In this document: positions 128 to 22,422 of the stretch, piece after piece
How the letters are laid out: each line of letters begins with the position of its first letter
Position numbering within the stretch: the first letter of the stretch is position 1
Source: a virus
Taxonomy: Duplodnaviria; Caudoviricetes
Virus record (IMG/VR): IMGVR_UViG_3300045970_000244
Location: 1-63,266 of that record
DNA: 63,266 nucleotides
Strand: one strand, 5' to 3'
Notes under the pieces: model-generated
What the model was told of the DNA's origin: nothing
Seen by the model: the letters and a program-made list of their open reading frames with translations, nothing else
Databases searched by the model: none
Position numbers and translations under genes: made by a program

Positions 128-2285
128 CTTTAGTAATCGTGGATGGATCTATGGTATTGGTTGCGGTGGCGACAACTGTTCCATTTGGAAACCCGGCCGA
201 GGTCTGTTGAAGTTCACAACTGAGAGCGTAACCAGATGGGATCGTTCCCACTTGCCAAGCTCTAAAGCTTGCAGTTCGCAGCCGGTTTGAGGTCGCGAGA
301 AAGGTTTGGCCAGCATACGCTTGCGTGGTGTCTACTTTTAGCTGCGCACCTGTGTTTGGGCCAGCATAGTTTGAAACGGTTATACCTTGAAAGTTTGTTA
401 CATCGCAAATCTCGTAGAGGTGAGCGCGGTCTACAGAGTCGGGGTGAACCATGTCGGCAGCAATGAGAACATGGTTGTCGTTCGATGGGTTTACCACCAA
501 ACGATGCGGGGTTTTGTACCACGACACATATCCGGATGCTGACCATCCGTTATAAAGAGATGGAACCAAATTGCTGATTGCGTAGCTGGTGAAACTTGGG
601 GTCCCAGTGAGTACGTTTGCGGAATATCCGATTCTGGTTGTACCATTGGTGATATCACCAAACACAACATATGCTTTGCCAGAAGAGGTCACTCGGGCAT
701 CCATGATGTACTGAGCGGTGTTGAGGCTGCTTACGTTAACGGTCGTTCCCGTCAAATTGCCTTGATCCCAATACGTGTACCGCACCCAAGTGCTGTTGTC
801 AGAGACAAACAGATGAACTCGGTGAGCGGAGCCGGTGCCGGTAATGAACATGCTGGGTGGAAGAGTCCACAGTGCGACTACGTTCACGCCTGCACCTAGA
901 TATGTTGTGGTACTTCCGACCCACGAGAAGAATTTGGGTTGTAATGAATTACCACTGTAATCATTTGTGATGGCAACAAACGAGGCATCAACGGGGTCAA
1001 TACCAACAATACTTACTATGTCGACTGAACCACTGGCATGAATTTGACCCATGCCGCCGCCAGCGTTGTATTGGAAATCGGTGAAGGATGATGCACCAAC
1101 TGAAAGGTCACACTGAATGGCCCAAACTTCAGAGTATGTTCCGCCGCTTTTGCCGTATGTTGAAACTATTCGTCCGTTGTTTGCAACGGCCAACTGATTT
1201 GAGTTTTGATAGTTGAAATTGCCCTGAGCATTTTCATACTGAGCGTAGCCTTGTACGCCAGCGGAAGTTTTACTTCCAAGCTCAGAAAATGTCTTGCCGT
1301 AATCAGAAGACCCAAACCAATGCCACAAAGAGTTGTTTGACGCCTGTTTCTCAAGAACCCGAACCAAAACATATTGCCTATTGAGTGAGATGGCTGCATC
1401 GGTCTTGAGAATAGTTCCAGCAATGCTACCGCTGATCTTCGATAGGAAGTTCTCTCCCGGCAAGCGAATGGTCGATGGCTCGTAGATGCCAACATCAGCA
1501 ATAGAGACAGACTCAAACGTAGCTGCCACACCGCCGAGTTCAAACTGATAATCGAACGGTTCAATTCGAAGTTGTGCCGGGTATTCCGATGCCGACAGGC
1601 CCATCGAAAGATCGAGCGAGTTCGTGTTCGTCAGAACCAAAGTTGTCTCATCTGCGCCAGAACTGTAGGTGCAGCTTGACACCGGGAACAGTTCAAGAAT
1701 GTTCGTGGTAGCGTTGAAGATTGAGACAAGTTTTGGTTGCGTGAGAGCGCCGTCAGGGTAAACGAGTTTCGATACCTTGACCTTCTTGCTTCCTGTTGAG
1801 GTGAACAGGTTGGTCACATCACCCTGAATCTTGAACGTGTTTGAGGATACAGCCGTAGGTTTCGGAGCGATCTGAATGAGCGACGCAACGATGATGCCTT
1901 CAGCCGAAGACACCTTGGCCGACACGGCGCCGGAACGTGAATAGGTTCCGCTGAGATTCGATCCAGAAAGCTGAAGTTTTGATCCAGAGACAATGGTGTT
2001 TGAAAGAGTGCCGCGCCCAGTGGCGTTGAAGTCGTCCCACATCTGGCCCGGTGCTGTGGCGAATGCCGCCCCGAGTTCTCGTGCGGTCAAACCACCCAAG
2101 AGGTCAGTGCTCCCACCACCTCCACCGCCGATGTCGCCGTTGACGATTGCGGCGTAAAGTTGCTTGTTCAGTCCTTTGGCCGTGACGTAGATTTTGGTGT
2201 CGTTGATGAGTTGCGAATCGGTCCCGCCTGCGGAAGCCAATTCAGCCGAACTCTTCACATCTTCATTTTGAATTTTGCCAGCCAT
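1..2285 (-). CDS. 5' part of a ~1218-aa tail fibre / receptor-binding protein that wraps across the contig ends (continues 63139-61768)
   Basis: ATG at 2285 preceded by GAGGTG; reads MAGKIQNEDVKSSAELASAGG... without a stop to base 1 and joins in frame to ORF 61768..63075; Ser/Thr/Gly-rich, beta-type sequence; absent from the ORF track because it runs off the end. Confidence 0.85.
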   Translation of the reverse strand, partial: MAGKIQNEDVKSSAELASAGGTDSQLINDTKIYVTAKGLNKQLYAAIVNGDIGGGGGGSTDLLGGLTARELGAAFATAPGQMWDDFNATGRGTLSNTIVSGSKLQLSGSNLSGTYSRSGAVSAKVSSAEGIIVASLIQIAPKPTAVSSNTFKIQGDVTNLFTSTGSKKVKVSKLVYPDGALTQPKLVSIFNATTNILELFPVSSCTYSSGADETTLVLTNTNSLDLSMGLSASEYPAQLRIEPFDYQFELGGVAATFESVSIADVGIYEPSTIRLPGENFLSKISGSIAGTILKTDAAISLNRQYVLVRVLEKQASNNSLWHWFGSSDYGKTFSELGSKTSAGVQGYAQYENAQGNFNYQNSNQLAVANNGRIVSTYGKSGGTYSEVWAIQCDLSVGASSFTDFQYNAGGGMGQIHASGSVDIVSIVGIDPVDASFVAITNDYSGNSLQPKFFSWVGSTTTYLGAGVNVVALWTLPPSMFITGTGSAHRVHLFVSDNSTWVRYTYWDQGNLTGTTVNVSSLNTAQYIMDARVTSSGKAYVVFGDITNGTTRIGYSANVLTGTPSFTSYAISNLVPSLYNGWSASGYVSWYKTPHRLVVNPSNDNHVLIAADMVHPDSVDRAHLYEICDVTNFQGITVSNYAGPNTGAQLKVDTTQAYAGQTFLATSNRLRTASFRAWQVGTIPSGYALSCELQQTSAGFPNGTVVATATNTIDPSTITKAGGSTSGGQWIYFNFANVTITSGVTYGLVIKATYPTSATNYI

Positions 2286-2293
2286 CTTTCACC

Positions 2294-2542
2294 TCAGTAA
2301 GAGTAAACCGCCACCAAATCTTGGCCCGCTTTTGGGGCCGTCGTCATCGTAATACTGGTACCACTTCGAGAATAATCCGAAACGAGCAGTCCGTCACGGA
2401 ACAGAGAGAAGGAACCCGTGGTCGGAGTGTGAGCCAGAGTGAACGCGGTATTTGTGCCGTTGATTGAACCTGAAGGCGTTTCCGCCACCATCGTTCCACC
2501 ACCGCCACCAACCACTGAAAACTTTGACGTTACTCTTGCCAC
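2294..2542 (-). CDS. Small fibre-associated virion protein
   Basis: ETPSGSINGTNTAFTLAHTP motif paralogous to a segment of 3858..4643; located in fibre cluster. Confidence 0.7.
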   Translation of the reverse strand: MARVTSKFSVVGGGGGTMVAETPSGSINGTNTAFTLAHTPTTGSFSLFRDGLLVSDYSRSGTSITMTTAPKAGQDLVAVYSY

Positions 2543-2558
2543 GGGTTCCTCAGCTCAA

Positions 2559-3842
2559 TTAATACGCATACTTGACGAGAAGGACATCGCCGGCCACGAG
2601 CGCCGCCGCACCACCGGTGCAGAGATCTCCGCCAGTCTTGAACGTCAAGCGGGTTTTACCACCAGCGCCGCCGGTCAACGAAAGGTCATAATCCACACCT
2701 TCCGTCTGTACGATGCCTGAGATCACGAGGTCAAGGCTGTTCGCCTTAACGACCTGCGCCAAGTCAATGTACTGAGCGGTCACGTCGCCGGAGACAAGGG
2801 TTTTGCTTTCCTTGTTCCATGAGAACGTGCCCTGCTTGCCCGAAAGAGCGGAGTTGACAGCCGACACGCTCGGTGCCTGATCCGTTTCCGAACCAGCGAG
2901 GGTGTTAAGGACTGCCGCCGTTTTCGCGCGCGCCGCCGTGAAATACTGTGCCGTGCCTTCTGCAACGTCGCTCGTGGTGAGAACCACAACTCCGACCTGC
3001 CCGTTGACAGAGGTGACTTCGTTGCTGTTCAGCGACTTGAACCACTTGCCGTCGGCTCCGTAGATCACGAAGTCGCCAACTGCGAAGGTGATCGCCCCGT
3101 TGCCGAAGTTGCGAGTTCCAGCCACCGTCACTTCATAAACGTCGCCAGCATTGCCGGTTCCGTCAGAGAGCGAAGGCGTGTTGGTCGAGGCATTGTACTG
3201 CCCCTGAAGTTCCATCACGGTGTTCGGCAATTGCGATGCCGGAATTTTACCACCACCATCAAGGGTTGCGACACCGCTGTTCGCGCCCTTCTCCGATGAG
3301 CTGATCTTCGCGCCGAGAGCGGTATTCACCGCCGCGACAGAAGGAGCTTGGTCGGTTTCGCTGCCAGCCAACGTGTTCAGAACGGCTGCGGTCTTCGCGC
3401 GAGCTGCTGTGAAATACAGGTTCGCGCCTTCAGACACGTCGCCAGTGTCAAGGGTCACTGAACCGGTCTTGCCGGCCACGCTCTGCACCGGAGCCGCCGC
3501 CGAAGCGCGTCCCGTGGTGAAGTAAAGGTTCGTGCCTTCAGCGATGTCCGAAGTCGTCAGGACGACGACGCCCGTCGCACCGTTCACCGATGAAACCGGC
3601 GAGCTGGCCGAGATCAACGATAGAACGTAGGATTTGCGCGTCAGGCCGTTGTTGGTGGTTGGATCGGCGGCCACTTCTGGTACCGATGCGAACTCAACGA
3701 CGTCTGACGAATTGACGCGAAGGACGTTAATGTCTGCGGTTCCGGCAGCGTTGCGGCTGCGGAGCCATCCACCAGAAAGAAAGCGAAGCAGTTCATCGGT
3801 GATCTGGTTTACGCCGATGAACTTTGTTGTTAATTTAGCCAT
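2559..3842 (-). CDS. Tail fibre protein with internal repeats
   Basis: Three V.SV(N/A)G..G.V.L.T.D(I/V).EG...YFT repeats; two TAAVLNTLAGSETDQAPSV copies; KGANSGVATLDGGGKIP fibre motif. Confidence 0.8.
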   Translation of the reverse strand: MAKLTTKFIGVNQITDELLRFLSGGWLRSRNAAGTADINVLRVNSSDVVEFASVPEVAADPTTNNGLTRKSYVLSLISASSPVSSVNGATGVVVLTTSDIAEGTNLYFTTGRASAAAPVQSVAGKTGSVTLDTGDVSEGANLYFTAARAKTAAVLNTLAGSETDQAPSVAAVNTALGAKISSSEKGANSGVATLDGGGKIPASQLPNTVMELQGQYNASTNTPSLSDGTGNAGDVYEVTVAGTRNFGNGAITFAVGDFVIYGADGKWFKSLNSNEVTSVNGQVGVVVLTTSDVAEGTAQYFTAARAKTAAVLNTLAGSETDQAPSVSAVNSALSGKQGTFSWNKESKTLVSGDVTAQYIDLAQVVKANSLDLVISGIVQTEGVDYDLSLTGGAGGKTRLTFKTGGDLCTGGAAALVAGDVLLVKYAY

Positions 3843-3857
3843 GAGATCTCCTGAAGG

Positions 3858-4643
3858 TTAATAAAAGTAACTTACTCTCAACTGGTCATTCGCCGCTAAC
3901 AGCGCCTCAAGCCCTAGACCGGTCCAACTGAGTTGGTTTCCGCTTACTACGAAGTCCGTTCCATAGACTTGAGCAATACCGCCGATCATGTCCACGGTGA
4001 CCGCCGTGGGCTGAATCGGAACGTCGGGCAGCGTAATGGCCTTGTTGGTTATATCGGCTGCCAAAAGGATTGGGTAAATCGTTTTCGGTGTGATGCTGGA
4101 CCCACCGCCGCCTCCACCACCGCCGCCAGAACCACCGGTCGTGAGGTAAGCAACATAAGGGACTTGGCCTGTTTGCGGGATGCTCCCTACGGCAAATTTG
4201 ACCGCCTTGGAAGCGCCAGAATCGATCAGCGTGAAGTCGGCAACCACCTTCTGCACCACGTCAGCAAATACGATGAGCGAATCCTGATTCACCGGTACGC
4301 CGGTGAGAACGAACGTGTCGTTAATGCCGTCAACCGTGCCGATGGGCGTTTCTTGCTTGAGTCCAATTCCGTTGATTGCGGCGTCGAGCTGAGTGAGTTG
4401 CGTTTGGACCGTCGTGCCAACAGCGAAAACATGACCCGTTGGGTCTGCTGGAATCAGGGCGGCCGTCAGGGCCTCAAACCATTCAATCCATTTTCCGGTA
4501 AGCCAGAACAGCCAGTTCATGTATTGGAACGGAGGTTTTTCACCGGCGACCCAACCAGTAAATGCCTGCGGAGAAGGCGGCTCAACGACTTTTGAGTTAC
4601 TGCCGTCTGTCCAATTTAGAAACTTCGTCGGTTTGATCGCCAT
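3858..4643 (-). CDS. Baseplate-proximal tail fibre protein
   Basis: GW..GEKPPFQYMNWLF is a typical fibre N-terminal baseplate-attachment motif; follows baseplate wedge genes. Confidence 0.8.
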   Translation of the reverse strand: MAIKPTKFLNWTDGSNSKVVEPPSPQAFTGWVAGEKPPFQYMNWLFWLTGKWIEWFEALTAALIPADPTGHVFAVGTTVQTQLTQLDAAINGIGLKQETPIGTVDGINDTFVLTGVPVNQDSLIVFADVVQKVVADFTLIDSGASKAVKFAVGSIPQTGQVPYVAYLTTGGSGGGGGGGGGSSITPKTIYPILLAADITNKAITLPDVPIQPTAVTVDMIGGIAQVYGTDFVVSGNQLSWTGLGLEALLAANDQLRVSYFY

Positions 4644-15870: not shown

Positions 15871-16143
15871 TTACCGGTGCGAGGAGAGGTGAATCTTCAA
15901 CGCTCGCTCGGTTTTAAAATCGCGGCCACACTTGCCGCACTTTGCAACGGGATCGGCTGGTACGGCGACCTTTGTCGCCTGAGCTATCTGCTTATCCGAG
16001 GCGTCGTCGATCCACTTGATCCAGCCGAGGTTCAAGTTGGCGACCAGCGCCGGGTAACTCCAAGAAAGAGCTTCGGGGACGGGCTGACCTACGCCAACCC
16101 GTTCCCCGTTGCTCAGCACTAGTTCACGACAGGCTATGTACAC
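15871..16143 (-). CDS. Head-associated protein with C-terminal C2H2 zinc finger
   Basis: GTG 16143 after AGGAG; ends CGKCGRDFKTERALKIHLSSHR. Confidence 0.75.
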   Translation of the reverse strand: MYIACRELVLSNGERVGVGQPVPEALSWSYPALVANLNLGWIKWIDDASDKQIAQATKVAVPADPVAKCGKCGRDFKTERALKIHLSSHR

Positions 16144-16159
16144 CTTGCCGGTTCTCCTA

Positions 16160-17116
16160 TTAGGACAGGAGGCCCTGCAGGAAGCAGCCGAGGTCGGTAG
16201 CGACGACTTTCTGGTCGAACGCCATCTCGCCCTCAACGCGATCTGCCTTCAGGTGTTCCATGCGGAACGTCATGATGCGGCCGCCCTGCGCGCCAGCTCC
16301 GAAGAGCCCCTGCCACGCGAACGTGTAGCCCGCTGAGGGCTGCATGATCGACGGTGCCGGGTTGGCATAGCAAAGCAGTGCGCAGTTCTTCACGAGGAAG
16401 TCCATGGATGCGGCTGCACCCTCGGCTGCCGAATCCTGAACGGCCTGCATGACGAGGAACTTGTCCACGCCAAACAGAGCTGCCAAGAGGTCCTCGGTGA
16501 TGATACCGCGCTGCGTGTACTTGATACGATCAAGCACGGCCGGGTTGTTCTTGAGCGCCTGAAACACGTCGTACGTGATCGCGAGCGTGTTCGGAGCGAA
16601 CCCCGTCTTGCTCTTGATCTCGGCCTTCTTGTTGTCGACGTCGAGCATCGGGTTTGAGCCCGAAGCACTCCACTTGGTCGAGGGCGTGAAGTCAGCGGCA
16701 CCATTCCAGAGGCCGGCTTTCACGTACTTCGACATGAACAGGATCTCCCTGCGGAGAAGCTGTTGCTGGGTGACAAACAACGTCGCGTCGCGATCCATGT
16801 TGAGTGGGTCGTCGGCGTTCTGACGAGTCTGATCGTCGATGTCCTTGTGCACCGCCCAGATGTCGCAGAAGTAGTTCCCGCCCGCGTCGACGCCGAACCC
16901 GCTGCCTGACGATTCACTGGCAGGGGCGCGTTTCTTCGACTGGGTCTGGAACCAATACTTCTTCTCGTACTGGAAGTACAAATCGGACTGTTTCATTACC
17001 GGCACAATCGGAAACACCTTGTCCGCGACAAAGTCTGCCGCTTTCTGGATGTAGGCGATGCTGATGTTGGTCAGCGGCCGGTTGACGTGGACATCACTTC
17101 TTGTAGGTTGTGGCAT
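16160..17116 (-). CDS. Major capsid protein
   Basis: HVNRPLTNISIAY.Q....FVADKVFP.VPV, RAPASES, PSAGYTF motifs; AGGAGG RBS. Confidence 0.9.
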   Translation of the reverse strand: MPQPTRSDVHVNRPLTNISIAYIQKAADFVADKVFPIVPVMKQSDLYFQYEKKYWFQTQSKKRAPASESSGSGFGVDAGGNYFCDIWAVHKDIDDQTRQNADDPLNMDRDATLFVTQQQLLRREILFMSKYVKAGLWNGAADFTPSTKWSASGSNPMLDVDNKKAEIKSKTGFAPNTLAITYDVFQALKNNPAVLDRIKYTQRGIITEDLLAALFGVDKFLVMQAVQDSAAEGAAASMDFLVKNCALLCYANPAPSIMQPSAGYTFAWQGLFGAGAQGGRIMTFRMEHLKADRVEGEMAFDQKVVATDLGCFLQGLLS

Positions 17117-17506: not shown

Positions 17507-18708
17507 TAGATGCCTCCTTTACGGTTCTTCTGGTGTTCAGCGTACAGTTTGCGGCCTTCGTCAGAAGTGATGAAGTCCGTGTACGCCTGTTCTTTTGAGA
17601 TCGTTCCACCAGACTTCTTGACGATTCCGTCAACGGCGGCGTCGATCTTGCCCGAGATGTCAGCGCCGGCATTGCCAGTCTGATCCGAGCCAGTTTCCTC
17701 GAACAGCTTGCCCTTCTCGGCTTGCTTGTCCAAGGCTTCGAACTGTTTGCACACGCGGTCAAAATCCTCTTTACCGGCTTTGTCGGCCAGTTTCAGGGTC
17801 TTGACGAGCTCTGCTTTGTCCAGAGCGATGTGCTTGAATTCCTCAGCTTTCGCCACGATTTCTTTCTCGCGACCCGAGGCTTTGAGCTCGGTGATCTCTT
17901 TTTCCAGACTTGCGGCCTTGGTTACCGCTTCCATCTGGGTCTTGAAGATCGCTTCGACTTCAGGGCGGAGCTTCTCAGGAACCGCCGCGAGGTCGATGGT
18001 TCCATCAGACTTCATGATGATTCCCATATCTCCCTCCCCTTCTTTCTTTACAGGTTCAGTTGTTTTGCCGTCGGTCTTAGCAATCCGTGCCTCAGCGTCG
18101 GGATAACCCTTGCCTAGTTTCCGAACATGGGACTTGACGGCTTTCATGTAAGCGTCCATGCCTGCGGAATGAGCGGATTCCTTCTCCTCGTCCGACGCTT
18201 CGGGCAGTGAGCCCTCTACGCCAGCCTTGGAACCTTTGTCGACTTCCCCTTCGTCGCCCTCTTCTTCTTCTTCGTCTTCGGTGAGGCCGGCTTTGCCAGC
18301 GCCTTCCGTTCCGGGCTCGTCGTGGGGAGCGCCCTCGCTGATCCCGATGCTCTCAAGCACCTGATCGACGAGTTCGTCGGTAATTTCTTCTTTGAACGGG
18401 GCGAGAATACGCGCCACCGCTTTGAGGGCTGCCTGCGCCTGTGGGCTCAGGGCCGGGGCCGCTGCTGGGTTTGCTGCTGGCGCTCCGGCGGCCGGCGCTG
18501 GTTTCGTGGGGTCTACTGTGGGCATGGGAGCCTCCTTCGCTGTGGCAATGTAAGCCTTGAGAACAGCCTCAACCTTTGCCATTTGCTCGGGTGTGACGGA
18601 TTGAATGGCTTCGAGCGCCGACTTGAAGATGATGAACTTCTTCTTGTTCGCGCCTCGGGGCACCAAACTGACTTCGGCTGGTTCAAGACTGTGTAAACGT
18701 CGTATCAC
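17506..18708 (-). CDS. Scaffold protein with N-terminal EVSLV..GAN protease strand
   Basis: Acidic/coiled-coil body; N-terminus RRLHSLEPAEVSLVPRGANKKKF; many [IVL]xK motifs. Confidence 0.75.
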   Translation of the reverse strand: MIRRLHSLEPAEVSLVPRGANKKKFIIFKSALEAIQSVTPEQMAKVEAVLKAYIATAKEAPMPTVDPTKPAPAAGAPAANPAAAPALSPQAQAALKAVARILAPFKEEITDELVDQVLESIGISEGAPHDEPGTEGAGKAGLTEDEEEEEGDEGEVDKGSKAGVEGSLPEASDEEKESAHSAGMDAYMKAVKSHVRKLGKGYPDAEARIAKTDGKTTEPVKKEGEGDMGIIMKSDGTIDLAAVPEKLRPEVEAIFKTQMEAVTKAASLEKEITELKASGREKEIVAKAEEFKHIALDKAELVKTLKLADKAGKEDFDRVCKQFEALDKQAEKGKLFEETGSDQTGNAGADISGKIDAAVDGIVKKSGGTISKEQAYTDFITSDEGRKLYAEHQKNRKGGI

Positions 18709-18788: not shown

Positions 18789-21155
18789 CTAGGCAGGGTT
18801 TTGCCCATCACGAAGCCCAAACCCGCCCACACTGAACGCCTGATACTCGCCTTCGAGCACCTTTTGCCACTCTTTTGCGTCCTTGATTTTGATGCCCAGC
18901 ACCCACGATCCCTTCTTGATCTTCTGCGGCCCGTACTGCCCGCCTTCAAGCTCCATGTCGACCGGGGCGATGTAACTCTCAACAGGTTCGGCTTGTATCG
19001 CCCGCCCGTGCCCAGAGCCCACAACCCGCGATTTCTGCAAATATATGTGCGCTGCGCTCTCAATATCATCGGCAGACATCCAATCTTCTTGAGAGTCGAC
19101 CTCGTCGGGAGCGAGCACCACACCGTAGACGACTTGCTTGTGCTTGTCGGCCTTGATGATAGGGACCTGTCTCAAGTCTTTGGAATCTGCCTTCTTTACC
19201 GGCTTTGACCAGTGCGAAATATTGTACCGAAACCCACTGGAGGTCTTTCCCCCACTTATTCCTGCTTCACGCATGAGGGATTCGTGAACGTGCTTGGCTT
19301 GTGCGCTTGGGAGCCCAGAGGAAACACGCTTTGCCCCTTGCGCTGCCGCTGCCGAATACAACGAGCGGTACATCTCTTTACCGAGCCCTTTACCCTGAAA
19401 CTCATCCTCTAGATCCGTTTCCCCTATGTGGAGGGTGTCTCCGAGGACGATCCCATTCCCGATTCCAACCGTCTTCCCTTCTGAATCCTTTATTTTAACG
19501 CGAACCGCCGGGCTGTCGCGTTCGTCTTCCGAGAGGTCGAGCCCCAAATCTTTCCCGGTCAGATGCTCAACTTGCATTGTGGTTTTGGTTGCGTTGTCTT
19601 CAGTGTCCGTGGTCTCGCGCTCCCACTTGTCCCACGCCGCCTTGTGTTCGTCCTTGGCCTTCTGAAACTCGCGCCCGGTCTTCTCTTCGTGGGCCTGAGC
19701 CTCTTGATGAATCTCATGAACCCGCTGGTCGGTGGGGTTCTTGTCGGCCTCTTCTCGCGCGTTGCGTTCGGCGGTCTGAGCCTTGTGCCATTCGCGACGT
19801 GTTTCCTTCATTTTCTTTTGCGCTGAATCAACGACTTTCATGTGCGGGCTGAGCTCTCCCTTGCCCTTGCTCTCTCCACCGCCAGACCCGAATCGCCCTT
19901 TCTCGTCGCGCGACACCTTGCTCTCGTCCCAATCGCCGGCCTTGCTCACTGCCATGCCTGCGCTGCGGGAGTAAGGCTTGTCGCCTTCGAGCTTTGTTTG
20001 GTGATAGCGCACCTTCTGCTCAAGGGTCTGTCGGGCCTTCATCGCGGCCTTCATGTTGTTGTGGGCCTGCTCATCTTTCGGGTTCTTCTCGTAGGATTCG
20101 CGAGCCTTCTTCTCTTCTGAGTGGGCGTCCTTCAGGCTTGCTTGGGCCGTCATCAGGTGGTCGGCATGTGCCTCGCGTGGGGTCGAGTAGTGCTTGCCGC
20201 CAGATTCACCACCGCCAGAGCCAAAGCGTCCGCGCTCGTCGCGGGGATGTTTTGATTCTTCAAAGGATTCCTCTTTGCTCACGGCGTCGGTCCAGTACTC
20301 GCCCAGAGTTTCAAACGCGAGCTGCGCGTCTTCGGACAGCGGCTCCTTCTCGCTCACGCGCTCGAATATCTGCCGGTACACGAGCTTGGCGCCCTTGGCG
20401 ACTTGGCCCTCGTTGGTTTCGAACCACGTCATGACGAGTTCCTTGGGGTACTCGGTCAGTTCTTCCGGGCCCTCGTAAAGCATCTCGCCGCCGTCTTTGA
20501 GAACCCGGGCGATCTCTCCCAGAATCTCCTTCGGCTGAACGTTCTCCATGTCATGCAGGGCGTTGACTACGCGCACACCCTTGGCCACCCTCTCGGGGAA
20601 CGGGAGGCCCAAGCCGAGGTCATGGATCAGTGTCCCATGATCATACGGATAGATGTCGATGCCGATGTGTCCGGGCTCTCGGCAGGAGGAGCATCCGAGG
20701 TCAAGCATGAGCGATGGTTCGCTCTGCGCTTGCCGGACTTGGTCTTGCTCACCGCTGAAAGCCGCGTCCCCGCGCAAAATCTTGCCGTAGTGGTCGGCGT
20801 CGACGTCAAGGCGGGCCTTGGCCGTGATGCTGGCAACCATCGGGTCAATATTTCCGTTGGCGAACTCGTAATCGGTTCCTTCGATTCTCTGCTGCAAAGC
20901 GAGAACGTCAGCAAAAGCGTCGTCATCAACAATGCGGTCAGCCTTAGTAGCCTTGACAATCTTGTTCCTCTTCTTTCCGAGCGGTTGGTTTACGTGAACG
21001 TCAGAGCCGGCGGGCTGGGCCTTCTTGCACTTGGCGGCCTTTGCTTTGCCTCCAGCCGACGCGCGTGAAGCGCGAAAGAGCTGCGACATCATCCAGTCTG
21101 GTAGGTACGCTTTCGATTTCTTGTGCAGGGCCTCAAGGTATCCGGGTGTCGCCAT
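18789..21155 (-). CDS. Polyprotein: capsid-mimic peptide, SAM methyltransferase, two HPRDxxGRF-type modules, GNAT, C-terminal XkdF-type prohead protease
   Basis: LDLGC...LPFP...EIARVLKDGG (class I MTase); EFQGKGLGKEMY (acetyl-CoA motif A); VYGVVLAPDEVDSQED...IESAAH...ESYIAP...KKGSW...AFSVGG (XkdF). Confidence 0.85.
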   Translation of the reverse strand: MATPGYLEALHKKSKAYLPDWMMSQLFRASRASAGGKAKAAKCKKAQPAGSDVHVNQPLGKKRNKIVKATKADRIVDDDAFADVLALQQRIEGTDYEFANGNIDPMVASITAKARLDVDADHYGKILRGDAAFSGEQDQVRQAQSEPSLMLDLGCSSCREPGHIGIDIYPYDHGTLIHDLGLGLPFPERVAKGVRVVNALHDMENVQPKEILGEIARVLKDGGEMLYEGPEELTEYPKELVMTWFETNEGQVAKGAKLVYRQIFERVSEKEPLSEDAQLAFETLGEYWTDAVSKEESFEESKHPRDERGRFGSGGGESGGKHYSTPREAHADHLMTAQASLKDAHSEEKKARESYEKNPKDEQAHNNMKAAMKARQTLEQKVRYHQTKLEGDKPYSRSAGMAVSKAGDWDESKVSRDEKGRFGSGGGESKGKGELSPHMKVVDSAQKKMKETRREWHKAQTAERNAREEADKNPTDQRVHEIHQEAQAHEEKTGREFQKAKDEHKAAWDKWERETTDTEDNATKTTMQVEHLTGKDLGLDLSEDERDSPAVRVKIKDSEGKTVGIGNGIVLGDTLHIGETDLEDEFQGKGLGKEMYRSLYSAAAAQGAKRVSSGLPSAQAKHVHESLMREAGISGGKTSSGFRYNISHWSKPVKKADSKDLRQVPIIKADKHKQVVYGVVLAPDEVDSQEDWMSADDIESAAHIYLQKSRVVGSGHGRAIQAEPVESYIAPVDMELEGGQYGPQKIKKGSWVLGIKIKDAKEWQKVLEGEYQAFSVGGFGLRDGQNPA

Positions 21156-21157
21156 GT

Positions 21158-22123
21158 TTATTCTTCCTCGCTCTCTTCTGGTTGCGCGTCTTCCAGCCTC
21201 TGTGCTGAATTGCCAAAGTCAAGCTCCATGCCGCAAAAACAATGCGGGTGGCTCTCGGTTGGGACGTCAACTTGTTCTCCGTTCGGTAGTGTCCAAAATT
21301 CGTCCAAGGGCACCGCGACACCATCCATGGGTTCACAGATTTCGCACGGGGCTCCATCCACGATCCAGACCTTACGAGCGGTTCCCCGATCAATAAGGCT
21401 CTGGTCTGCGGCCTGCCGCCACACGGCTAGCTGCCCTTGGTTTGTGGCGAGTCTGGTTTCGGTGCGGGCGATCATCATGGCGCGGTACTGCAGCAGGTCG
21501 TCCATCTTCTTGGCGGCGTATGCCTGCTGGTTTGCGGCCGGGATGTCCTTACCCTGCATTCCCCGAACATAATTTTGGTACGCTGCTGTGAGCCGTGTTC
21601 CGAGGCCGATTGTGCCCTTGATCTCGGCTGCCACTTGGCGCGGCGTGAGGGCTTCGTTCATGGAGCGCGCGACCTGTTGCTGGATGAGTTCCTGTGTTGA
21701 TTTTTTTGCGTCGGTTATCCACTCGCCGGTGCGCTTGTCCACGAAGTTCCTGATGGACGGGTTCTTCATGTCGAACCGGAGCTCGTTCTTCACGGGAGGA
21801 GGCAACCTCTCCAAGCTGAATCCAGCCGCTGAGGTCAGCGTGCCCGCGAGAGTGCGGCGCGCGGGGCCCATGTCCTCGTGCATGTCGTCCCACGGGATGA
21901 TGGCCATGATCTTGCTTGGGTCGCCGGAAATCCAGAACTCTTCAATCTTCGCTGCGCTGACTCGTTTTTTGAACGTGCTGTATCCGTGAACGAGGTCCAC
22001 TCGGACGGCGCCGGCCATGTTTTTACTCAGGTTGGTCAGACGCGTGTACGTGCGGGTCTTGGCCCACTTGCTCTTTGGGGCTGCTTTGAGGATAGAGGTG
22101 CGTGGCTCAGAGTGAACCCACAT
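21158..22123 (-). CDS. MuF / SPP1 gp7-like minor head protein
   Basis: RAMMIARTETRLA.NQG, W......CEICEPMDG, HPHCFC; start re-set to ATG 22123 (TGATG overlap). Confidence 0.85.
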   Translation of the reverse strand: MWVHSEPRTSILKAAPKSKWAKTRTYTRLTNLSKNMAGAVRVDLVHGYSTFKKRVSAAKIEEFWISGDPSKIMAIIPWDDMHEDMGPARRTLAGTLTSAAGFSLERLPPPVKNELRFDMKNPSIRNFVDKRTGEWITDAKKSTQELIQQQVARSMNEALTPRQVAAEIKGTIGLGTRLTAAYQNYVRGMQGKDIPAANQQAYAAKKMDDLLQYRAMMIARTETRLATNQGQLAVWRQAADQSLIDRGTARKVWIVDGAPCEICEPMDGVAVPLDEFWTLPNGEQVDVPTESHPHCFCGMELDFGNSAQRLEDAQPEESEEE

Positions 22124-22422
22124 CACCATTGAACCTTTCCGTCGCGTACCCAGCCGTGGAACTTGCACTGGCTCTTGATCTCGCGGCCGTCAGCCAACTT
22201 GAGCGCGCCGGTACAGTCGATGATCGGCGAAACCGTCACCGTGGCGATGTCGTCAGATGACTTTGACCAGATTGCCCCGCTGCCAAACAACGACGGGGCC
22301 GTAAAGCTCACGGCGATAGAGTGCCCGCGCTCGCACACGGGGCAGTCGAACATGAGCACGTTGTCGGCGCGTTCAGCGAACTTGACGAACTGCCCTTTAA
22401 GCTCGCGGAGAGATTTTTCCAT
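22123..22422 (-). CDS. DUF6527-like Cys/His protein
   Basis: F.CPVC...H...W....TVSPII.....C.FHGWVRDG.V.W pattern; GAGGAGG RBS. Confidence 0.65.
   Translation of the reverse strand: MEKSLRELKGQFVKFAERADNVLMFDCPVCERGHSIAVSFTAPSLFGSGAIWSKSSDDIATVTVSPIIDCTGALKLADGREIKSQCKFHGWVRDGKVQW

Follow-up and report, generated by a model that had tools for sequence, protein, structure and literature searches.

A portable peptide that copies the N-terminus of the major capsid protein: a candidate capsid-targeting tag on head proteins of tailed phages

Why should a prohead protease polyprotein carry, near its own N-terminus, a copy of the first residues of the major capsid protein (MCP) of the same phage? 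The question is raised by a stretch of 63,266 nucleotides from a tailed virus (Duplodnaviria; Caudoviricetes; IMG/VR record IMGVR_UViG_3300045970_000244), hereafter referred to as the window, in which an open reading frame (ORF) of 788 codons encodes a polyprotein that ends in a serine protease. A short peptide of this polyprotein, here called the tag, resembles the extreme N-terminus of the MCP. The tag turned out to recur on several kinds of head protein and to vary together with the MCP N-terminus of its own genome; its best reading, judged from sequence comparison, is that of a capsid-targeting peptide mimicking the N-terminal arm (N-arm) of the MCP, and in this reading we have somewhat more belief than doubt.

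A sequence-only reading of the locus had reported that a 13-residue peptide of the polyprotein matches the start of the MCP. Re-translation and a scan of the window confirmed its coordinates (Table 1) and its identity, which amounts to 10 of 13 residues and 25 of 39 nucleotides; polyprotein residues 40–65 read AAKCKKAQPAGSDVHVNQPLGKKRNK, and the 318-residue MCP ORF begins MPQPTRSDVHVNRPLTNIS. The KKA that was said to precede the peptide as a possible cleavage site is present, as C-K-K-A. The MCP start is well defined, with an ATG, the sequence AAGGAGG upstream and an in-frame stop immediately before it. When the whole window was scanned in six frames, the next-best match to either 13-mer reached 6 of 13 residues, for which reason a chance match was rejected, and the tag and the MCP start are the only two places with a [ST]D[VIL]H[VIL] core. 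Seven of the ten identical residues had been described as using different codons, and indeed just 3 of 10 share theirs; the same is seen over 20 genomes, where codons are shared in just 55 of 181 identical tag/MCP residues. A recent DNA duplication or gene conversion was therefore rejected as well. Few shared codons despite identical residues indicate that the resemblance is held at the protein level, and this part of the earlier proposal is borne out also by the six-frame scan.

The MCP itself gives only a sub-threshold match to Pfam PF03864 (Phage_cap_E; 20.4 versus 22.9 bits). Its monomer, modelled with AlphaFold2 (AF2), has an HK97 fold with a predicted local distance difference test (pLDDT) score of 86.6, and the best Foldseek match is 3bjq (E 4e-20), a Bordetella prophage protein that is the nearest solved structure by sequence and fold, followed by many phage capsids; encapsulin shells are among the neighbours. 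Residues 1–20 of the model are unstructured (pLDDT about 52), so that an N-arm docked in cis was not seen in the monomer; such disorder would be usual for an N-arm that needs a partner. No solved capsid of this family from which N-arm contacts could be read was found, 3bjq being the one structure found by sequence and the best match by fold. Phage 7-7-1 was considered as a family member with a structure and rejected, as its MCP is of a different, delta-domain type, and the JBD30 paper describes N-arm behaviour in general terms only, with no contacts for this MCP family. A version of the motif begins all 25 IMG/VR relatives whose N-terminus is in view, and wherever a start could be identified, in 54 of 54 distinct MCPs, it stands 5–14 residues from the initiator Met. 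Over 51 aligned MCPs, His10 and Leu15 never vary, and Pro4 and Val9 are kept in at least 90%. An apparent second copy at one relative's locus (L008, 3738..3895) was rejected as a tag; it is an exact inverted copy of the MCP start on the opposite strand and probably an assembly artefact.

The tag was also found beyond the window. In a phage with a closely related MCP (locus L020), which begins M-D-P-N-G-Q-S-V-H-V-N-T-P-L, the linker of a 217-residue ChaB-like/protease protein contains N-D-P-G-G-S-S-V-H-V-D-S-P-L-G. A degenerate DNA scan of IMG/VR for D-V-H-V-[ND]-x-P-L-G gave 46 loci, of which 18 are MCP N-termini (of the P-L-G variant), 25 lie in non-MCP head proteins and 3 match by chance or out of frame. 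A search with one ChaB-tag-protease protein gave 770 homologues, and among the 120 listed 46 have the strict core and 66 have the tag by a looser rule; some homologous proteases start with the tag and have no cargo (M-S-D-P-G-S-S-D-V-H-V...), and others are tag-less. A tag profile built from 22 windows around the motif was then compared with 1.84 billion cluster representatives, which gave 73 proteins at E<=1e-3, 71 of them with the canonical motif; the window polyprotein is among these matches (P0138, E 3.5e-7).

A Pfam scan took in 57 of the 73 proteins, the other 16 being short or seen before. An XkdF protease is present in 29 of the 57, a Mu gpI-type protease in two and MuF in another two; 13 have only other domains (histidine phosphatase, ChaB, ADP-ribosyltransferases, Zeta toxin), and 11 gave no Pfam match. 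No viral loci turned up for the Mu gpI-type carriers; their metagenome contig ends within the gene. The cargo fused in cis to tags includes Acb1, which acts against the cyclic-oligonucleotide-based antiphage signalling system (anti-CBASS), LigT/2H phosphoesterase, NUDIX, methyltransferase, Fic and rubrerythrin-like domains. The tag also occurs on a portal and on a scaffold: a Mu-type portal (L056) ends ...G-Q-P-S-A-G-D-V-H-V-N-A-P-L-G-G-K-K-K-K-A-K-R-stop after a low-complexity linker of ~90 residues, and a scaffold (L051) begins M-S-S-P-D-S-G-D-V-H-V-N-V-P-L-G-G-K-Q-K-K-R. Several unrelated head-internal proteins (proteases, MuF, portal, scaffold and cargo enzymes) thus carry it, as is expected of a portable capsid-targeting or cargo-loading peptide, with one full tag per protein as a rule, regardless of the number of domains. 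The positions that it takes, i.e., the N-terminus of cargo-less proteases, the C-terminus of the portal, the N-terminus of the scaffold and the linkers of cargo proteins, appear to fit a portable tag better than a domain.

Some of these carriers have features of their own. The L056 portal gene (1976..4024, minus strand) is interrupted by an intein, with LAGLIDADG and splicing-domain matches. Acb1 (PF23474) stands between the tag and an XkdF protease in L031 (1962..2999), L058 (1061..2149) and the proteins P0139, P0159 and P0184; such fusions suggest that anti-defence enzymes are carried ready-made in the capsid. In L032, L054, L063 and L067, from phages that also bear the tag, the C-terminal 100 residues of the protease protein form a His/Val-rich extension with strings such as V-H-V-H-V-N-F, V-N-V-H-V-P and V-V-H-N-H-V, which recalls the V-H-V core and may bind metal.

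Outside viral data the bare nine-residue pattern is not specific. A scan of bacterial and archaeal genome DNA gave at least 120 loci, and those listed comprise 91 in-frame matches, almost all of them unrelated, with one convincing tag (L157) and no MCP start. This tag (L157, L223) lies on a contig of a Methanotrichaceae metagenome-assembled genome, and the MCP encoded on the same contig is 99% identical to that of viral contig G005 (L035, L088). Neither the tag nor the MCP has kept the Pro at position -6, and the pair may come from a virus that infects a methanogen, if the binning is right. A conserved motif of a cellular enzyme, YQAGADVHVDDPLGG, likewise contains the pattern D-V-H-V-[DN]-D-P-L-G, as Y-Q-A-G-A-D-V-H-V-D-D-P-L-G-G (bacterial contigs L097, L111, L124, L133, L191, L200 and L210). 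We take this enzyme to be deacetylase-like, with Asp and His as metal ligands; the likeness is probably a coincidence, and it may be a sign that D-x-H...D-P-L-G is able to make a metal-binding strand-turn.

Position counts over 84 unique tags and 47 unique MCP starts, with the His as position 0, gave the consensus [K/M]-x-x-P-x-x-[GS]-D-V-H-V-[DN]-x-P-L-[GT], of which 15–16 residues are shared. The His is present in 84/84 tags and 47/47 MCPs; it is preceded in both by Val at -1, by Asp at -2 (70/84 tags, 39/47 MCPs), by Gly or Ser at -3 and by Pro at -6 (79/84 and 43/47). It is followed at +1 by Val in tags and by Val or Ile in MCPs, at +2 by Asp, Asn or Pro in tags and by Asn or Asp in MCPs, and at +4 by Pro (74/84 and 40/47); at +5 tags have Leu or Met and MCPs Leu (47/47), and at +6 tags have Gly (73/84) and MCPs Thr or Gly. 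The conserved Lys of tags at -9 (68/84) lines up with Met1 of the MCP, the initiator Met being found there in 31/47 MCPs, and at -8 tags have Asp (60/84), a residue that MCPs do not have there, this position being mostly Pro (21/47). A run of Lys, Arg and Pro (+8 to +15) follows nearly every accessory tag and is missing from MCPs. One ChaB-protease family supplies a large share of the tag sample, so that the conservation of Lys at -9 and Asp at -8 may partly mirror that context. A half-tag, K-D-D-P-G-[TS]-Q-D-V, fits tag positions -9 to -1 and is without H-V-x-x-P-L-G; it recurs between the domains of large polyvalent carriers, often just past the Lys run (loci L036, L037, L045 and L060; proteins P0125, P0132, P0134, P0141, P0143, P0150, P0152, P0157 and P0179).

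The tag and this MCP family occur together. The family is present in 166 of 50,697 phage records, and 19 of the 25 tag-bearing viral contigs encode it, including three of three complete genomes; the other six contigs are fragments or incomplete (6–26 kb, with an estimated completeness of 6–33%). All 19 of these MCPs begin with the motif, 18 in its canonical form. Co-variation of the two peptides across related phages, which the sequence-only reading had put forward as a check, was found: at eight variable positions tag and MCP share 4.15 identities within a genome versus 3.06 across genomes, a value reached in none of 20,000 permutations (p<5e-5, which takes no account of shared ancestry among the genomes; n=20, and also n=14 after removal of repeated vectors). 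In the G005/G022 lineage, for instance, the Pro at -6 is replaced in both tag and MCP. The two copies track each other, which would follow from a common partner or from their serving one another.

From these results, the following mechanism is proposed. A portable linear assembly tag of ~16 residues, copying the invariant extreme N-terminus of the phage's own MCP, would occupy during procapsid assembly the site that normally recognises the MCP N-arm; tagged proteins, i.e., the protease polyprotein, injected enzymes and sometimes the portal or scaffold, would be co-assembled into the inner shell or held at it, and the Lys-rich run after the tag probably adds electrostatic affinity. In the window, the tag would tether the polyprotein with its methyltransferase (MTase)-like, GNAT and protease parts. 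Candidate sites are, as in P22 and 80alpha, the C-terminal helix hairpin of the scaffold, or else an adjacent MCP subunit or a homotypic N-arm strand. Scaffolds accompanying this MCP family have a conserved C-terminal element (...S/T-x-E-Q-A-...-L-Y-x-E-...), and by analogy with P22 and 80alpha, where scaffold ends grip the N-arm, the scaffold is a natural candidate receptor. Recognition by a neighbouring MCP, or homotypic pairing of N-arms, would account just as well for the fact that the tag is a copy of the MCP and not its complement, and would be a better fit for the scaffold-borne and portal-borne tags. The boldest version of the homotypic option is a self-recognising zipper: D-V-H-V-[DN]-x-P-L N-arms would pair as the shell grows, possibly through a metal bridged by His and Asp, and any protein with a copy would be built into the lattice where a neighbour's arm would otherwise lie, the Lys at -9 mimicking the free N-terminal amine of the MCP. 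The copy would then be a programmable, position-independent loading tag that delivers anti-defence enzymes (Acb1, ADP-ribosyltransferases, Zeta and Fic toxins, MTase/GNAT proteins) and even seats the portal; taken as a whole, this scheme seems to us rather unlikely.

Several observations weigh against the capsid-targeting reading. Twelve loci of MCP relatives that reach at least 5 kb upstream of the MCP were scanned, and none has the tag. It is likewise absent from all eight isolated phages sampled (KPP23, RDJL Phi 1, ValentiniPuff, Ottawa, Shrooms, Mulvp2, RHph_Y52 and Tedan) within 8–9 kb either side of the MCP; KPP23 and RDJL Phi 1 have a canonical MCP motif and a tag-less protease, and just 3 of 7 homologues of the N-terminal portion of the window polyprotein carry the tag. 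Genome G020 has a canonical tag, but its MCP N-terminus has diverged to Q-V-H-I-D-V-A-L. In a closed shell every N-arm site is filled by the MCP, so that a receptor on the MCP needs free sites. The co-variation value, being uncorrected for shared ancestry, counts here as well; likewise, the link to the MCP family was counted on viral contigs, and for the 73 profile matches it is presumed. Finally, both structure predictions show the tag and the MCP N-arm as disorder alone: in the AF2 model of a 223-residue ChaB-tag-protease protein, built on a 75-sequence alignment, the tag lies in a disordered linker (residues 74–97, pLDDT<50) between confident domains, which led to the rejection of a docking of the tag in cis on the protease or ChaB domain. 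Such disorder is as expected for peptides that depend on a partner. The earlier proposal that N-arm mimicry loads the protease and its cargo into the prohead thus stands in part: the recurrence of the tag, its tie to motif-bearing MCPs, the co-variation and the portable positions speak for it, but the tag-less relatives show the tag to be dispensable for loading the protease. A more fitting view is that of an extra tether for cargo, whether free or linked to the protease; the tag would be an optional booster or retention device rather than the sole route of the protease.

The main rival of the capsid-targeting reading attributes the likeness to protease specificity, not docking: the motif would be a recognition or cleavage site, shared by both proteins, at which the prohead protease trims the MCP N-terminus and frees the cargo. 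The motif does lie where domains meet, most frequently directly upstream of the protease, and the conserved Lys at -9, aligned with Met1 of the MCP, is a possible cut site at which cleavage would yield an MCP-like free N-terminus; the half-tags (K-D-D-P-G-T-Q-D-V) between polyvalent domains are likewise candidate processing sites, and the targeting sequence of T4 is itself reportedly removed after use (PMC9958956). Nevertheless, there would be nothing to release at the N-terminus of cargo-less proteases, of the scaffold and of all the MCPs, which have 5–14 residues before the His, nor at the extreme C-terminus of the portal, whose tag argues that cutting is not required. The usual single full tag per protein, whatever its number of domains, and the occurrence of the tag alongside both XkdF and Mu gpI-like proteases, which belong to unrelated families, fit a cleavage site poorly as well, and AF2 does not place the tag in the protease cleft in cis. 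An intact N-terminus is also hinted at by the KPP23 MCP, which was assigned by N-terminal sequencing of the virion protein, although the sequence is not printed (PMC4031330). For these reasons we regard a role in cleavage alone as unlikely; by analogy with T4, whose targeting sequence is removed after use, docking and cleavage would not be mutually exclusive.

Two other explanations deserve less credit. The Lys/Arg run after nearly every accessory tag, and the fact that the carriers are typical injected proteins (ADP-ribosyltransferases, Zeta, Fic, Acb1 and MuF fusions), would suit a signal that marks proteins for association with packaged DNA or for exit through the portal, the MCP N-terminus contacting DNA likewise; this is quite improbable, given that MCPs are without the basic run, that the shared part is acidic/His plus hydrophobic and not DNA-binding in character, and that protease, scaffold and portal are not ejected cargo. 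Least probable, and hardly credible to us, is that the tag is a functionless remnant, a mobile mini-module left by recombination among head genes (e.g., 5' fragments of the MCP gene fused to neighbours) and tolerated as a linker. Its patchy, dispensable distribution agrees with such an origin; on the other hand, 9–10 positions are conserved over the 84 unique tags, with the His invariant, codons have diverged while the amino acids were kept, there are 73 significant cluster representatives, and the contexts of the tag are independent.

To our knowledge, the way in which minor and injected proteins are selected for packaging is obscure in most tailed phages, the capsid-targeting sequence (CTS) of T4, the scaffold dependence of P22 and MuF anchoring being the few known cases. 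The T4 CTS is close in kind: this N-terminal peptide of about 10 amino acids, found on IPII and IPIII, directs proteins, foreign ones included, into the prohead core, its cargo consists of injected anti-host proteins, and it is processed by the prohead protease (PMC9958956). The tag differs from it in copying the N-terminus of the phage's own MCP, in standing at N-terminal, internal or C-terminal positions and in occurring also on portal and scaffold. The T4 CTS is not known to resemble the T4 MCP N-terminus and probably binds the scaffolding core.

The use of the coat N-arm as a handle has precedents. In P22 the C-terminal helix-loop-helix of the scaffold grips the coat N-arm, with R293/K296 facing D14/E15/E18 (PMC9965877), and in 80alpha a C-terminal helix and hook of the scaffold contact it (PMC5644958). 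The P22 gp8/gp5, 80alpha SP/CP and SaPI1 CpmB systems offer a receptor logic, and the scaffolds studied here have a conserved C-terminal element; the difference is that CpmB copies the coat-binding end of the scaffold, whereas here, as seen by sequence, the coat side is copied. The lambda C/Nu3 pair and the herpesvirus protease/scaffold pair reportedly also copy the coat-binding end of a scaffold. By this analogy, the proposed mechanism would invert a known trick. Encapsulins load enzymes by short terminal peptides that dock inside an HK97-fold shell, and their shells are among the structural neighbours of this MCP; unlike the tag, these peptides are not known to be copies of the shell N-terminus, and the system described here has a scaffold, a portal and a protease. 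Polyvalent proteins and MuF-anchored polymorphic toxins are similar in being multidomain, head-packaged, injected enzymes (ADP-ribosyltransferases, Zeta, Fic, phosphoesterases, MTases) encoded beside head genes (PMC5512222; PMC5576092). The polyvalent-protein paper proposes processing mediated by metallopeptidases (MPTases), and a term search of it gave no description of the motif as a copy of the MCP (PMC5512222). Elsewhere in the literature searched no description of the motif was found, letter motifs not being text-searchable and supplements lying outside the search, so that an earlier mention is possible. If the capsid-targeting reading is true, the tag can be read straight from genomes, and its match to the MCP N-terminus implies its partner; it would become possible to predict from sequence which effectors the capsid delivers, among them toxins and protease-fused Acb1 anti-CBASS enzymes, an early step of coat, scaffold and portal recognition would gain a handle, and a 16-residue tag would be at hand for loading foreign proteins into phage heads.

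With so many tag-less relatives, the protease must have another way into the head. A candidate for this route is a hairpin-like motif, x-E-V-S-L-V-x-x-G-A-N-x-x-x-F-h-h-h-K, which opens the scaffold gene right after the protease stop in all relatives. Scaffold starts with this motif lie at 18600..18708 (minus strand) in the window, at 766..900 in L020 and in L001, L002, L013, L011 and L051. In L020, alone among the seven tested, the motif matches positions 127–163 of 165, i.e., the last 37, of PF04586, the HK97-type protease profile (E 0.002, below the cut-off). Some 14 residues past F-S-I-G-G the protease ORFs come to an end, their C-terminal 20 residues being of low confidence in AF2, and fused protease-scaffold families exist (phrog_3017, 402 residues); in the window the protease end (18789..18830, minus strand) and the scaffold ORF are 80 nt apart and in different frames. 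These features may mean that the protease fold is shared out between the two genes, the scaffold completing it in trans, or that a frameshift fuses them.

The polyprotein gene sits between the MuF and scaffold genes, in the order terminase, portal, DUF6527, MuF, polyprotein, scaffold, decoration and MCP, and tail sheath and baseplate genes in the window point to a contractile-tailed virus. The protein is a polyvalent protein in the sense of Iyer et al. 2017, with GNAT and protease domains by Pfam, an MTase-like region by homology and a head-linked gene. The XkdF-type domain scores 97.9 bits against a curated cut-off of 24 and also matches phrog_3017 (head maturation protease); FSVGG and a conserved His, seen by eye, are nearly invariant in 75 homologues, and the Ser of F-S-[IV]-G-G and the His motif may be catalytic. 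The MTase-like region of the window protein itself gave no Pfam match at E<=0.01; the homologous stretches of L029 and L059 match Methyltransf_11. The scaffold, for which no Pfam or PHROG match was found, was assigned by gene position and by alignment with 16 relatives.

Table 1. Coordinates of the tag, the matching MCP start and the head genes around them in the window
Feature	Coordinates	Strand	Remarks
Tag 13-mer QPAGSDVHVNQPL	20979..21017	minus	Residues 46–58 of the 788-aa ORF 18789..21155
MCP 13-mer QPTRSDVHVNRPL	17072..17110	minus	Residues 3–15 of the MCP ORF 16160..17116
Tag, full motif K-A-Q-P-A-G-S-D-V-H-V-N-Q-P-L-G	20976..21023	minus	Polyprotein residues 45–60; fits tag profile
MCP extreme N-terminus, original motif M-P-Q-P-T-R-S-D-V-H-V-N-R-P-L-T	17069..17116	minus	
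Lys/Arg-rich run GKKRNKIVKATK	20943..20978	minus	Directly after tag
Polyvalent protease protein, 788 aa	18789..21155	minus	N-terminal 44 aa, tag, MTase-like region, two Gly-rich repeats, GNAT, XkdF-type protease
Class-I methyltransferase-like region	20469..20705	minus	Residues about 151–229; probable, from homologues
GNAT acetyltransferase domain	19281..19502	minus	Residues 552–625; PF00583, E 1.9e-4, 22.1 bits versus cut-off 20.7
XkdF-type prohead serine protease	18819..19160	minus	Residues 666–779; PF14550 (Peptidase_S78_2), E 5.5e-28
Scaffolding protein, 400 aa	17506..18708	minus	N-terminal hairpin-like motif EVSLVPRGANKKKFIIFK and C-terminal helix-turn-helix-like end, both conserved
Decoration / head-fibre-like protein, 125 aa	17129..17506	minus	phrog_673; position upstream of MCP kept in relatives
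MCP, HK97 fold, lambda-gpE-like, 318 aa	16160..17116	minus	phrog_1005, E 4e-87

Some further elements of this region were noted, all on the minus strand. Residues 1–44 of the polyprotein (21023..21155) hold a second short conserved element before the tag, L-P-x-W/x...-F/L-x-x-A-R-A-[AS]-A-G-G, which is common to the otherwise different carriers L042, L035 and P0195. The two Gly-rich repeats of 17 residues, R-D-E-[RK]-G-R-F-G-S-G-G-G-E-S-x-G-K, lie at 20193..20243 and 19860..19910, 111 residues apart, each with E-S-K before it and a helical segment after it; kindred [KE]-H-P-R-x-x-x-G-[RK]-[FW]-G motifs are found in other tag carriers (L042, L060, L054 and L062), and the repeat seems to be a linker motif that is widespread among polyvalent head proteins. 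Between the portal and MuF genes lies the gene of a DUF6527 protein of 99 residues (22123..22422). Downstream of the MCP gene, an ORF of 121 residues (15871..16236) overlaps its last 77 nt in another frame and ends in a C2H2 zinc-finger-like C-x2-C...H-x4-H (Pfam zf-C2H2, E 3e-4, below the cut-off).

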